Source: Promethearchaeota archaeon
Lineage (GTDB): Archaea > Asgardarchaeota > Lokiarchaeia > Sigyniarchaeales > SOKP01
Assembly (NCBI GenBank): GCA_011364925.1
Contig: RDOA01000002.1
Coordinates: 1 to 64,000, forward strand
Reading direction: 5' to 3'
Length of the DNA stretch: 64,000 bases
Every line of letters starts with the position of its first letter. The stretch's first letter is position 1. A model generated the notes under the pieces. That model was not told the DNA's origin, searched no databases, and worked only from the letters and a program-made list of their open reading frames with translations. The translations under genes and the position numbers were made by a program. This document shows positions 1 through 6,768 of the stretch, piece by piece.

Positions 1-263
1 AAGCCAAACTCTTTCTTTATTATCATTTCTGCTTTTCTTAAGCTTTTTAGTTCTAATACATTTGCTTCAATTCCAATTGCTATGCCCCCTTCTTTTTTGA
101 TTTCAATTGCTAACTCTTCAGCCGCTTTTTTTCGCAGATCAAGTATTGCAACTTTAGCGTCACAACTTGCGAGAGCTTTAGCAAAATTTCCACATAATTC
201 TCCAGCGCCACCGGTTATTACGACCGTTTTTTCTTTTAATTCAATTCTAAATGGGACTTTCAT
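1..263 (-). CDS. SDR family oxidoreductase, D-mannonate/5-keto-gluconate reductase-like (5' part; runs off the window start)
   Basis: Manual translation from ATG at 263 gives MKVPFRIELKEKTVVITGGAGELCGNFAKALASCDAKVAILD..., with a TGxxxG Rossmann motif. A GGAG Shine-Dalgarno lies upstream. Not listed in the ORF track. Confidence 0.85.
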   Translation of the reverse strand, partial: MKVPFRIELKEKTVVITGGAGELCGNFAKALASCDAKVAILDLRKKAAEELAIEIKKEGGIAIGIEANVLELKSLRKAEMIIKKEFG

Positions 264-308
264 ATGGATCTCCTAGATTGTTTTACTTTTATACTATTAC
301 AATTGACT

Positions 309-1517
309 TTACTTAATAACAGTCGAGATTTTGCAATTTACTTTGTCCGTCTGTAATAACTTTATATTCTCTGGAACCTCGTTAAGAGTTATCTCTTTCG
401 TAATCATGGGAGTAACATCCATACCCGCTGCCATACAACTGATTACGTTAGGAAATGTGCCATGTCCTGAATGTCCTTGAGCGCCAACGATTCTTGCTCT
501 TCTAACTTGGAAATATTCTCCACACACTGGCATTCTCTGTTCCGCTCTGGCAACAACCACTACAGTACTATTAATTGCTTTGCATTCCCATATAGCATTT
601 TGTATATCTTCAGTACATATTTCAGGTAAACCTGCCGATTCAAGATAAAGAGCTGCTCCTTCATTGTCTGTAAATTCCTTAACCTTTTCTACAAAACTCT
701 CTTTTAGAGGATTTATGACGAAATCAGCACCCATTTTCTTAGCCAATAAAGCTCGAGGTTCTGATGGTTCTGAAATAACACATATTGCAGCTCCTGCCAT
801 TTTCAAAATCTTTATTGCCGCTAATCCAATTGGTCCCCCACCAAGAATTACTACATTTTCTCCCGGGCGAATTCCACCACCTCTCTCTATAACTGCATTA
901 TAGGCTACTGATGTTGGCTCAACTAAACTACCTATTTTGTAAATGTCTTTATATTTATCTTCTAATTTTTTTAAACTCCAACATAGTTTTGCCGGAACCG
1001 CAATATATTCTGCGAATGCTCCATCTATTGAGAAGCCAATCTCTTGTAGTCGTTCGCAGTGATTTGGATATCCATCACAACACGGTTTACATTCACCGCA
1101 CCATACCATTTCTTCAACTGTTACCGGTTCTCCTGTTTCGAAAGGTTTACCTGTTCTTTTACTTAATGCACGATTTCCTACTTCTACAATCTCTCCAGAA
1201 AATTCGTGACCAATCGTAACAGGAAAAGCAGTCAATCCTGGGTAATAGATATATCCATCTTCGTAGGCTTGGTTCATATGGACATCTGAACCACAGATTT
1301 TGTTCATTAAAAGATTTTTTTAATGAATTCCACAACGCTTAACTTTAATGAGTACTTCATTATCTTTAATTTTCGGTTTATCCTTATCAGTTAAACGAAC
1401 TTGTGGGTCTTTCCATACCTGTGAACCAAGATAAGTAAGTTTTCCCTTAATATCCTTAGACCCGATCTTAAAACTTGGCTTTGGATCCCATTTTGCACTT
1501 AATTCTACTGCTTTCAT
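309..1517 (-). CDS. iolM: scyllo-inosose 3-dehydrogenase (Zn-dependent MDR family), split by a 30-nt insert; proposed join(1328..1517,309..1297), 392 aa
   Basis: ORFs 1320..1517 and 309..1307 are in the same frame. Removing 30 nt gives KRCGICGSDVHM...GHEFSG, plus the structural Zn motif CGECKPC...C and GGGPIG. It closely resembles Thermotoga IolM as I recall it (GYIxYPGLTxFPVTxGHE). Confidence 0.85.
1298..1327 (-). other. candidate BHB/BHL-type micro-intron (30 nt) in iolM
   Basis: mRNA sense: GGAA|UUCAUUAAAAAAAUCUUUUAAUGAACAAAA|UCUGU. There is a perfect inverted repeat at 1303-1312/1318-1327 and an in-frame TAA at 1320-1322. Excision restores C-G-I-C. The exact boundary can slide by a few nt because of a flanking AAT repeat. 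Confidence 0.7.
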
Positions 1518-1677
1518 TTAATTCACTTTACTAAGATTTTGATAGCTTAATACTTATAAAAATTTAAATTAGTAGGAAAAATTTGTTAAGTTGAATTCTC
1601 CATTTCATTAAGATAATCAAATAAAAAATTAAGTAAAAATCATCTTAATAAACTCATTCTAGAAAAGCGAGAGTATT

Positions 1678-1690
1678 AAAAAAAAAAAAA
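1678..1690 (-). terminator. oligo-U archaeal terminator after the GPH transporter
   Basis: A13 on the + strand (U13 in the mRNA) lies 5 nt after the stop codon at 1696. Confidence 0.5.
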
Positions 1691-1695
1691 TTTAT

Positions 1696-3102
1696 TTACA
1701 GAATACTTGCTTTCTTTTTTTCATGCATTTCTGTAAGCTTTGCTCTATTTTTTTTAAGGCGTTCTCCTTTTATCGGAAATAGGAACATCCCAATTAAAGA
1801 CAGTGCAAGAACTATACCTGGATAAATTCCCATTAAAAATCTAAGACCCGCAATAACATCGACTCCCGGATTAGGGGTATAATCCATCCAATTTGTTGAA
1901 GTAAAAACTAGATTGATCATAACGAAATTAAAAATCATCGATAGTCTTATTAGAAAGTTGAGAACAGCATAGTATATACCAGAACGTCTTACTCCGGATG
2001 TAATTTCGTCTTCGTCAATGATCTCCGCGATGCACTGATCGTAGAAGTAAAGTCCACCACCTAAACCAAAACCAAAGAACATCATGAATATTAAAGCCAT
2101 CCAAAAATCAACCGAGTATGCGAAAAGCACAACTGATACTAACCATACAGAAATTCCTATTAATCCACAAAATCGAGCACCCTTTCTGACTCTTATTTGT
2201 TCCCATAATGGGGTTGAAACAGCAGCTACAAGAAAAGTAACTAAAAGGAGTATCCCAATCAATTCAGTGTCAGTAATACCAACAGCATATACAAAAAAAA
2301 GAGGAGCTAAGGTTGGCAAAATGTTAATCACTAACCAAGTACCGAGAGCTGGAAATAAGAACCATAAAAACGATTTGTGTTTGAAGGTAAATTTAATCGT
2401 TTTTATAAATGGCATCGCATTTTCTGCATCTTTAGAAAGATGTTTGGGATCTTTCACTCCCCATTTTAAAATTAGGAAGTAAAAAACAAATATGATGATC
2501 CCTGCTGCAATTCCGGTAATAAGATATTGAGACATAGTTATATCGACGTTAGCAGGATTGCTGTTTGTTATATCATCAATTATAAACGTAGGGAATGTTA
2601 ATGCAAACATAGTCGCTAGCAGAGTAAATATTATACGAAATCTTCCTGTTGAACTACGGGTCCTCATGTCAACAAACATTTCAGAGAATAGCGCATTATA
2701 ATTTAAGTTAAAAGCGGTATAGGCAAAATCAAATAATATCAGAATGATAAGGAAGTAGACGAAAACCAATTGATTTGTATCATAAGTTCCCGGAGGAGTA
2801 AACAAGAGAATCATTAAAATGCCGAGTGGTATGGTAGCACCAATCATCCATGGGATCCTTCTCCCCCATCTGCTTTTAGTTTTGTCAGAGAGGTATCCAA
2901 TTAATGGATCATTAACTGCATTCCACAAAGCCCAGAGTATAAAACCGATAGTCATTATAGGACTAGGAATGTCAATAACAGCGAAATAAAAAGTAAAAAC
3001 TAAAAATGAAAAAGTGTTAAGCGCCACATTATCTCCGACTTCTCCACAAGCAAAAGCTAATCTCGTGCCTAAAGACATTTTTTGAGGTCTTTCTTCATTC
3101 AT
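1696..3102 (-). CDS. GPH-family (MelB/UidB-like) MFS sugar/glycoside:cation symporter
   Basis: Contains the WNAVNDPLIGYLSDKTKSRWGRRIPW signature and about 12 TM segments. The ATG at 3102 is preferred over the TTG at 3120. Confidence 0.9.
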   Translation of the reverse strand: MNEERPQKMSLGTRLAFACGEVGDNVALNTFSFLVFTFYFAVIDIPSPIMTIGFILWALWNAVNDPLIGYLSDKTKSRWGRRIPWMIGATIPLGILMILLFTPPGTYDTNQLVFVYFLIILILFDFAYTAFNLNYNALFSEMFVDMRTRSSTGRFRIIFTLLATMFALTFPTFIIDDITNSNPANVDITMSQYLITGIAAGIIIFVFYFLILKWGVKDPKHLSKDAENAMPFIKTIKFTFKHKSFLWFLFPALGTWLVINILPTLAPLFFVYAVGITDTELIGILLLVTFLVAAVSTPLWEQIRVRKGARFCGLIGISVWLVSVVLFAYSVDFWMALIFMMFFGFGLGGGLYFYDQCIAEIIDEDEITSGVRRSGIYYAVLNFLIRLSMIFNFVMINLVFTSTNWMDYTPNPGVDVIAGLRFLMGIYPGIVLALSLIGMFLFPIKGERLKKNRAKLTEMHEKKKASIL

Positions 3103-3227
3103 ATAATCACTTCTTTTCAAAATATTTATAAATAAAAATAAATGGCTTTTTGATCTTTAAAAAGCTTTCTACTATTAACAAAACTTTGAGATTTAATTAG
3201 CTATCATTCTTATATTAAGTTAATATT

Positions 3228-4040
3228 ATGTTACTCAGCATAGTTTCAGGGCTCGAGGAATCTAAAAGTAGTCCAAATGATGTGAACAAGAAATTTACTT
3301 ATTTATGTCGATATCTTAAATCCTTGAGTTATGATGGGATTGAGTTAAGTCTTTTAGAACCTGAAAAAATAGATGTTAAGGGGATTATAGAGCTACAAAA
3401 CTCGTACGATATGAGAATTTCTGCTTTAGGAACTGGAAGTACTTTTATTCGTTTTGGATACTCTCTAGGCGATCACAGAGAACCAATTCGCAAAAAAGCG
3501 ATCGAAAGAGTCGAGAAATATATTGAATTCGCTCGAGAGACTCAATCTAAAGTCATTATAGGATTAATACGGGGACGTTATAAACACGAAAGTAATCCTC
3601 AGAAAGAACGCTTAAATATTATCTCTTCTCTTAAAGAATGTTGTTCGATAGCAGAAAACAGCGATGTTCAACTATTATTTGAACCAATTAATCGTTTCGA
3701 AATTGATTCTTATCACACAATTTCAGAATCTTTAAAATTGATTAAGGAAATAGGCTCAAGTAACTTGAAATTACTAATAGATTCTTATCACACCCACTTG
3801 GAAGAAGATCCCGTTTATATTTGGGAATACCTTAAAGAAGTCGTACATTACGTAGGTCACATTCATCTTGCTGATACAACACGTAGAGCACCTGGTTCAG
3901 GACATTTTGATTTTAAAACATTTCTAAATATTTTAAAAACTCATGGGTACTCTGAATTCGTTTCGATTGAAACTATAATGAAACCCTCTTTTGAATTAGT
4001 TGCTAAAAATTCAAGTGAATATTTAAGACAAATTTTATAA
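3228..4040 (+). CDS. iolO: 5-keto-L-gluconate epimerase-like sugar isomerase/epimerase (xylose-isomerase-like TIM barrel)
   Basis: Motifs ALGTG, RKKAIERV, VIIGLIRG, EPINRFE, DSYH, HIHLAD and APGSGHFDF resemble Thermotoga IolO. The gene lies near iolM. Confidence 0.75.
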   Translation: MLLSIVSGLEESKSSPNDVNKKFTYLCRYLKSLSYDGIELSLLEPEKIDVKGIIELQNSYDMRISALGTGSTFIRFGYSLGDHREPIRKKAIERVEKYIEFARETQSKVIIGLIRGRYKHESNPQKERLNIISSLKECCSIAENSDVQLLFEPINRFEIDSYHTISESLKLIKEIGSSNLKLLIDSYHTHLEEDPVYIWEYLKEVVHYVGHIHLADTTRRAPGSGHFDFKTFLNILKTHGYSEFVSIETIMKPSFELVAKNSSEYLRQIL

Positions 4041-6204: not shown

Positions 6205-6768
6205 ATTAGAAAAAGATTAGAACAAGGACTTGTTCAAGTTTATTTTGGTCGGGGCAAAAATACTATATAGATAATAGTATTGTCTACAGGCAAGACCACT
6301 GCGGCAATAGGACAAGGCTTGAGAGCGACGGGGCATGGATTTAAGGTGTATATGATTCAGTTTATGAAGGGATACCCTCAATACGGTGAGGTTAAAGCGA
6401 TAGAAAATATCGCAAACTTCGAATTGAAACAATTCGGCACTCCAGACTTAATCGCAACTCCTGGAGAGATTGACTATGAAGAGGGAAGGAAAGGTATGGA
6501 ATTTGCAGAGCAAATTATTATGAGTGACGAATACGATATAGTTATTCTAGACGAGATTGGCGTAGCAGTCGAGTATGGGATTGTAGATATAAACGATTTT
6601 TTAAAATTAATTGACAACAAACCCGAAAAGGTCGAACTAATTATCACTGGAGGCCCTAAGATGCATCCTAAAATCAAGGAACGAGCAGATTTACTCACGG
6701 AAATGAGAATGATTAAACACTACTATTCCTCAAAAGGTATTAAGGCTCGTTTTGGTATAGAATATTAA
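6205..6768 (+). CDS. cobO: cob(I)alamin/cob(I)yrinic acid a,c-diamide adenosyltransferase (CobO/BtuR/CobA type), split by a 30-nt insert; proposed join(6205..6257,6288..6768)
   Basis: The frame upstream of the listed ORF encodes RLEQGLVQVYFGRGK. After removing 30 nt it continues GKTTAAIGQGLRATG...IQFMKG...ILDEI...ELIITG. There is no in-frame ATG/GTG/TTG between the TAA at 6196-6198 and the intron, so an ATT/ATC start after SD GAGGT (6192-6196) is inferred. Confidence 0.88.
6258..6287 (+). other. candidate canonical BHB micro-intron (30 nt) in cobO
   Basis: Structure: GGGC-AA|A-[AAUACUAU auagaua AUAGUAUU]-GUCU-AC|A-GGC. It has a 4-bp central helix GGGC/GUCU, two 3-nt bulges, an 8-bp hairpin and an in-frame TAG at 6268-6270. 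The spliced product reads GGC AAA GGC AAG (GKGK). Confidence 0.85.

Follow-up and report, generated by a model that had tools for sequence, protein, structure and literature searches.

A Relaxed BHB-Type Hairpin Insert in iolM of a Lokiarchaeon Is a Candidate Host-Spliced mRNA Intron

A Hairpin Carrying a Stop Codon Interrupts iolM

The window analyzed here, a stretch of 64,000 nt, belongs to a Lokiarchaeon (Promethearchaeota) with a genome of 3.9 Mb. Close to its start, positions 309–1517 of the minus strand hold iolM, which codes for scyllo-inosose 3-dehydrogenase and is interrupted by a single in-frame TAA (1322–1320); unspliced, the mRNA reaches this stop after 65 codons. The half before the insert (codons 1–64) aligned with positions 1–65 of the NCBIfam IolM model NF041097, and the rest with positions 65–386. 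When 30 nt (1298–1327) are taken out, the frame runs through CGICGSDVH and gives an IolM of 392 aa, and the five equivalent placements of a 30-nt excision all work. Besides the insert we found no further lesion across the 392 codons, and both the catalytic and the structural Zn motifs are intact. The preliminary description of this DNA had claimed just such a stop-bearing insert, whose removal restores this peptide and a protein of this length, and the position of the TAA, the two halves of the NF041097 match and the frame-restoring excision bear it out. The 10-bp inverted repeat with a 5-nt loop that it reported is also there (1327–1318 against 1312–1303). When the insert was shuffled, a stem of at least nine pairs appeared at the BHB position in a fraction of 3.5e-5 of 200,000 trials. 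The features of the locus, together with related introns of the same genome, are collected in Table 1.

Table 1. Features of the iolM locus and other predicted introns of the host genome (window positions unless a contig is named).
Feature	Position	Strand	Remarks
iolM exon 1, codons 1–63 and first base of Ile64	1328–1517	-	Donor-type; 41/44 assigned informative sites donor-like
BHB-type intron, 30 nt, frame-restoring register	1298–1327	-	1 nt + 9-bp stem with 5-nt loop + ACAA + AA
iolM exon 2	309–1297	-	Resident-type, Zn-binding and NAD-binding motifs intact; 112/117 assigned informative sites sister-like
Central helix, 5′ strand GUGG (exon)	1330–1333	-	Pairs with CCAU 4/4 in L017 and L058; 3/4 in L006-type alleles; 2/4 here
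5′ bulge AA^U, predicted cut 1328/1327	1327–1329	-	Predicted from BHB geometry
Intron hairpin, arms 1326–1318 and 1312–1304; in-frame TAA 1322–1320 and in-frame ATG 1307–1305	1304–1326	-	Compensatory pairs at stem positions 3 and 5
Central helix, 3′ strand ACAA (G.A, U-A, G-C, G.A)	1300–1303	-	Form common to L012, L294 and L298
3′ bulge AA^U, predicted cut 1298/1297	1297–1299	-	AAU invariant among alleles examined
Imported block: intron, exon 1, intergenic region and most of the MFS_2 transporter gene	about 1298–3090	.	80–90% identical to L298 and L012
Second 30-nt BHB intron, GGGC/GUCU 4/4	6258–6287	+	Splits the P-loop of cobO/btuR
aIF2-gamma intron, 29 nt, 4/4 central helix	G000 C53:19121–19149	-	In the P-loop
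30-nt intron in a 496-aa-type gene, 4/4 central helix	G000 C11:66653–66682	-	

The insert is not an assembly error, since the site is bridged, with no gap, by contigs of four DNA runs, each run from a different study; one contig is identical and two come from diverged relatives, and one of the four runs may be the source sample. It is also single-copy, with no second copy at up to three mismatches in the 3.9-Mb genome, which is at odds with a mobile footprint recurring as a 27–30-nt sequence at many loci. A search of Rfam gave no match anywhere in the window, and we saw no terminator-like site at the hairpin. At the protein level, the exact halves of the window's iolM were not found in the collection searched, and the best full-length match with the window's exon 1, spliced or intron-less, reached 81% identity, a search in which cluster representatives may conceal such a form. 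The nearest iolM orthologs are labeled mostly as Promethearchaeota (Lokiarchaeota). Within positions 1–4040, the neighbors of iolM are genes for an SDR, an MFS_2 sugar transporter and a TIM-barrel epimerase-like protein, and sister contigs continue past this region with uxuA, uxaC, and uxaE. The neighborhood suggests an inositol-to-hexuronate pathway.

The Same Junction Is Interrupted in Other Alleles

We collected 64 archaeal orthologs that cover the site; in 58 of them it is uninterrupted, and in six an insert is present at precisely this junction. Further alleles from metagenomes, obtained by pattern searches and a protein search, brought the total at the codon-64 junction to 11, the window included, with 10 distinct introns, all of them hairpins; one pattern match, in G136 (L284), was discarded as it is not iolM. 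Nine alleles carry 30 nt with a stop codon, and two (L017 and L058) carry 29 nt that shift the frame, so that the latter can neither be read through nor be explained as in-frame inserts. These 29-nt alleles form a perfect BHB, with the central helix GUGG/CCAU and bulges of 3 nt, and a cut after the second bulge base restores their frame, which supports the in-frame register. With the same rule, a cut between bases 2 and 3 of each bulge, all 11 alleles regain their frame. The central helix has four of four pairs in L017 and L058, three in five alleles and two in the window, L012, L294, and L298. Its inner U-A and G-C pairs are invariant, as is the AA of both bulges.

The stems also show covariation when the introns are aligned from both ends: pair 3 occurs as A-U, G-U, or U-A and pair 5 as U-A or G-C, while the loops are variable. 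This covariation rests on few events, and a shuffle test on a MAFFT alignment, in which the gap is misplaced, was not significant (41/500). An in-frame ATG lies inside the intron of the window and of L298; it is missing from L012, L294, and the seven other alleles. In L294 (positions 1–330), a window-type exon 1 and intron give way, about 15–30 nt past the intron, to the 3′ part of another Zn dehydrogenase, an arrangement seen in a single contig that may be a chimera.

Geometry and Register of the Predicted Splice Site

For the 5′ side of the motif, the preliminary description had offered two imperfect drawings, GUGG/ACAA with two of four pairs and UUGU/ACAA with four pairs and a 5-nt bulge. 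Both can be drawn as it said, and we reject UUGU/ACAA because it is not conserved, five alleles breaking its first pair and another two its last. The third arrangement that it mentioned, an excision of 32 nt, results from sliding the four-pair window by one base to UGUG/CANA, which has three of four pairs here and all four in the L006-type alleles; it shifts the frame as had been noted, giving a product of 108 aa. The in-frame register is favored over this one because the closing pair of the shifted register is absent in L294, L298, L017, and L058, and because only the in-frame register yields a protein in both length classes (29 and 30 nt). Likewise, AAU/AAU is favored over the GAA bulge of the 32-nt register since the first bulge base is A in 13 of the 16 other bulges and G in none. 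A mixture of 30-nt and 32-nt excision products is possible.

Folding programs did not predict a BHB for the window transcript. The two 3-nt bulges AAU/AAU can be drawn and their AA is invariant; the predicted fold lacks them, and the shifted register competes. The flanking helix on the intron side is present as a 9-bp stem with compensatory changes, and the exon-exon helix is absent. With two of four central pairs and no exon-exon helix, the motif is the weakest of nine mRNA sites defined by homology. Since the canonical central helix of four pairs is not formed in the window, where two of the four are G.A, we class the insert among BHB mRNA introns as a relaxed variant.

iolM Is a Mosaic Gene

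The two exons of the window allele have different closest relatives. Exon 2 is closest to the intron-less contigs L296, L301, and L303, which share the gene order (dS about 0.2), and the exon 1 of these contigs is distant (dS about 2). Exon 1 is close to L298 and L012 (dS 0.3–0.4), whose exon 2 is in turn distant (dS about 1.5). Informative sites divide between donor and sister 41:3 in exon 1 and 5:112 in exon 2, and the switch falls between −2 and +64. The MFS gene of the intron-less sisters, like their exon 1, differs from that of the window, and the flanks of the block are mostly 90–99% identical to them. In a tree of IolM, the intron carriers do not form one clade; four changes are required, and the AU test gave p = 0.0008. 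As judged from this mosaic, the intron reached the window lineage by recombination, on a block that also brought a replacement exon 1 and the transporter, and the block came in recently. Other alleles also show exon co-conversion that ends close to the intron: exon 1 of L017 is likewise foreign and ends near the site, and L009 contains a short L006-like tract (about −30 to +60) within an otherwise L011-like allele.

Other Inserts in the Genome and Its Relatives

We ran a census of disruptive inserts longer than 21 nt that relies on protein homology only and makes no use of a motif. The host yielded three well-supported cases in 0.94 Mb of aligned DNA (iolM, aIF2-gamma, and the C11 gene), and two relatives yielded four in 0.98 Mb, all of them 30-nt hairpins with 4/4 or 3/4 central helices. 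Every insert of the census, in host and relatives, is a hairpin of 29–30 nt at a BHB position. Hairpin inserts of 30 nt at BHB positions in the relatives lie at G026 C6 165873–165902 (−), 1128412–1128441 (−) and G005 C7 23173–23202 (+); among the three G026 and G005 protein genes that bear them, one is thioredoxin-like and one tRNA synthetase-like. A motif-only scan of the genome returned 1,119 candidates whose lengths showed a flat profile, and we set it aside as noise.

The cobO insert of the window adds a fourth host case; its junction holds an insert of 29 or 30 nt in 12 of 29 related loci, and the sister contig L301 has none there. BHB inserts are also found at codons 69 and 338 in other iolM orthologs, and the inserts at other sites show no duplications of the AAT type. 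Inserts in the codon-338 region occur in L037, L039, L042, L045, and L064, and L042 (1516–1545) bears both the codon-69 and the codon-338 insert. In L037, L039, and L064 a long convergent ORF of no clear family lies downstream, and the iolM 3′ end is present twice in L039.

Moreover, many tRNA genes of the host (on C58, C11, C101, C86, and C104) contain introns of 29–31 nt at non-canonical positions, placements that were ranked by BHB score and are therefore partly circular. ARAGORN reported just 23 host tRNAs, several of them mislabeled, and its output at a lowered threshold was noise.

Splicing Enzymes and the Proposed Path to IolM

The genome encodes two EndA paralogs and RtcB. The alpha paralog (on C29, 200 aa) keeps the Tyr/His/Lys triad, and the PDB entries that it matches best are subunits carrying a loop of the crenarchaeal type; in the alignment with the top match, Lys58 falls on Lys44. 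The PDB entries 3P1Z and 3AJV we take to be from A. pernix. The other paralog (on C22, 205 aa), which is beta-like, lacks the catalytic His and looks like a structural subunit. The loop lysine of EndA confers broad or relaxed specificity, and the loop is present in Asgard enzymes (PMC5829648). Recombinant EndA of S. tokodaii cuts a tRNA intron at borders with mismatches in the central helix (PMC4307357). By gene content, the host would thus possess both a broad-specificity EndA and a ligase.

We put at roughly 80% the probability that the iolM insert is an archaeal BHB-type mRNA intron productively spliced by EndA, a reading in which we infer cleavage, ligation and register from the sequence. 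The iolM pre-mRNA would fold the 9-bp intron stem, and the two-subunit EndA would bind GUGG/ACAA, in which a G.A pair at either end flanks the two Watson-Crick pairs, and cleave each AAU bulge behind its second base. RtcB would then ligate the exons, giving the spliced junction TGTGGAATCTGTGGT, the peptide CGICGSDVH and the 392-aa IolM. That a relaxed BHB intron would depend on a permissive EndA had been proposed in the preliminary description, and the perfect BHBs of alleles at the same site, the covariation of the stem, the purifying selection described below and the loop lysine of EndA all argue for it. Because perfect GUGG/CCAU is kept in two alleles and the window form is the most relaxed, splicing of the latter is probably less efficient, and the frameshifting 32-nt cut may compete with it.

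Selection and Alternative Readings

Between L298 and L012, both with the 2/4 helix, exon 2 has diverged to a dS of 0.55 with an omega of 0.066. The alleles with a 3/4 helix gave an omega of 0.06–0.09, and exon 1 of the window against L298 and L012 gave 0.16–0.23, a value in which selection in the window after the block arrived is inseparable from earlier history. Two fallbacks had been held in reserve for the insert, a decaying intron and a hairpin insertion with a 3-bp AAT target duplication. The omega of 0.066 between two lineages with an identical two-pair helix contradicts the former, and the latter fails on L298, L294, and L058, where the first repeat is AAA, as well as on the single-copy state of the sequence. 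As the two-pair form is common to three relatives, two of them under strong purifying selection, we regard the insert as neither decay nor target duplication.

An intron that once functioned could still have become unproductive in the window alone, too weak or cut at 32 nt, so that iolM would be a young pseudogene created by the imported block. The two central pairs out of four, the missing exon helix and the competing register would agree with this, as would the recency of the import and a pathway that is probably dispensable. We nevertheless consider it improbable: the 392 codons hold no other lesion, the same helix persisted over the divergence of L298 and L012 in the donor lineage, and diverged relatives from two other studies retain an insert of equal length. 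Moreover, 10 of the 13 window-derived changes in exon 2 that could be polarized by L297 are synonymous, although some of them may predate the import.

A little less probable again is the absence of any splicing, with two polypeptides made from the one mRNA: the 65-aa product of exon 1 and a 332-aa product reinitiated at the intronic ATG, which would keep the CGSD cysteine and the downstream Zn-binding motifs. The splice motif is weak and the ATG of the window and L298 stands in frame 12 nt past the stop, so the selection on exon 2 could, in these two alleles only, reflect separate translation. Yet L012 and L294, with the same 2/4 helix, have no such ATG, nor do the seven other alleles, and L012 is under the same purifying selection; the conserved ACAN-AA end and the stem covariation would also be left without explanation.

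Phage T4 gene 60 is translated by a bypass mechanism. If a ribosome were to hop over the iolM hairpin in the same manner, from codon ATT to codon ATC, the stop-bearing hairpin of about 30 nt and the matching Ile codons of the window would be accounted for, and gene 60 also adjoins a homing endonuclease gene (PMC2988022). This is very unlikely, as the take-off codon in L298, L294, and L058 is AAT (Asn), a mismatch to the Ile landing codon, and as it is the features of a BHB that are conserved, with perfect BHBs at the other sites. The hairpin footprint of a mobile element, whether tolerated or recently inactivating, we dismiss as the least probable, because the AAT on both sides and the inverted repeat that suggest it are set against a single genomic copy, a first repeat of AAA in three alleles, the lack of such duplications around other inserts and the presence of two length classes at one junction.

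Relation to Known Archaeal Introns

A productively spliced BHB intron in iolM, our preferred reading, would have its nearest counterpart in the BHB intron of the cbf5 pre-mRNA of Desulfurococcales and Sulfolobales, for which splicing was demonstrated (Yokobori 2009, PMC2738675) and for which no obvious transfer from outside the two orders was noted (PMC2738675). Both are short, lack an ORF and lie in coding sequence; the cbf5 BHB is often unconventional, and the hetero-oligomeric EndA cuts it between bulge bases 2 and 3. Whereas the cbf5 intron concerns one gene of crenarchaea, the introns described here occur in an Asgard host, in a metabolic gene and in several genes per genome, with a patchy distribution and lateral movement together with exon 1. 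The splicing of cbf5 has been shown, while that of iolM is a prediction. Archaeal introns were also treated by Tocchini-Valentini in 2011, and in-silico candidates in archaeal mRNAs may have been proposed before. Within the literature set that we searched, outside of which most subscription journals lie, there was no report of BHB introns in Asgard mRNAs, and cbf5 was the sole archaeal coding sequence with a confirmed BHB intron.

The geometry and the presumed enzyme are also those of the non-canonical tRNA introns of Asgard archaea (bioRxiv 10.64898/2026.10.13.758758) and of S. tokodaii (PMC4307357). The tRNA introns of the host (29–31 nt) match the iolM intron in size, and mismatches in the central helix are tolerable in this class. 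Unlike them, the iolM intron lies in an mRNA, and the Asgard preprint (bioRxiv 10.64898/2026.10.13.758758) deals with tRNA only. Should these mRNA introns be spliced, splicing of several mRNAs per genome already exists in the closest prokaryotic relatives of eukaryotes, and many genes that are annotated in Asgard genomes as split or as pseudogenes are intact. The allelic series of 4/4, 3/4, and 2/4 helices at one junction makes the minimal EndA substrate directly testable.

Free-Standing Nuclease Genes and a Candidate Homing Route

An HNH-family gene lies directly upstream of iolM in three of the 11 carriers (L006, L017, and L295) and at none of the 53 intron-less loci; since the loci are related to one another, the two counts cannot be taken as independent tests. 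The family was assigned with PHROGs (E = 3e-13), while Pfam gave no recognition. The two closest copies of the gene among 154 genomes adjoin an intron-bearing iolM. No close homolog of it was found in the window genome, which thus has no such free-standing nuclease. At the cobO locus of the sister contig L305 (3478–5500; also L303, 1–1500), an old 5′ remnant is followed by an antisense LAGLIDADG gene of 421 aa, a new exon 1 and a different 30-nt intron with a perfect BHB.

A free-standing HNH endonuclease that would cut intron-less iolM, with a putative activity and target, was likely the original vehicle. The HNH adjacency and the cobO arrangement fit, by analogy, the collaborative or trans homing of phages (PMC2988022). 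The likeness to these phage systems, among them T4 mobE (PMC2790892), lies in an endonuclease gene outside the intron, a conserved motif and exon co-conversion. Unlike the self-splicing group I introns of phages, the iolM intron would be a host-spliced BHB intron of 30 nt in a cellular archaeal genome, the nuclease is missing from the window genome and its cleavage is putative. Because the window lacks the HNH gene, ordinary recombination in a conserved stretch, perhaps favored by the transporter, may equally well have been the route into its genome, and the crossovers may just mark where conservation is highest.

We would tentatively go further, at somewhat less than even odds, and propose that Lokiarchaea harbor mobile, host-spliced mRNA micro-introns. 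Free-standing nucleases, HNH for iolM and LAGLIDADG for cobO, would cut conserved motifs, the intron, which would render its site immune, would spread together with replacement exon sequence, also to alleles that never acquire the nuclease gene, and EndA would splice in frame with as few as two Watson-Crick pairs. A datable gain, a mapped crossover and a candidate nuclease in one locus bear on how archaeal introns arrive.

Close homologs of the cobO-linked LAGLIDADG gene adjoin cobO in G040, G055, and G043, and the cobO frames there are cut short at 164 aa, like those of intron-bearing copies. The host itself has one LAGLIDADG-family gene of 458 aa (G000 C35:41371–42693, minus strand; L306), which is 34% identical to the cobO-linked one and adjoins a helicase-like gene.
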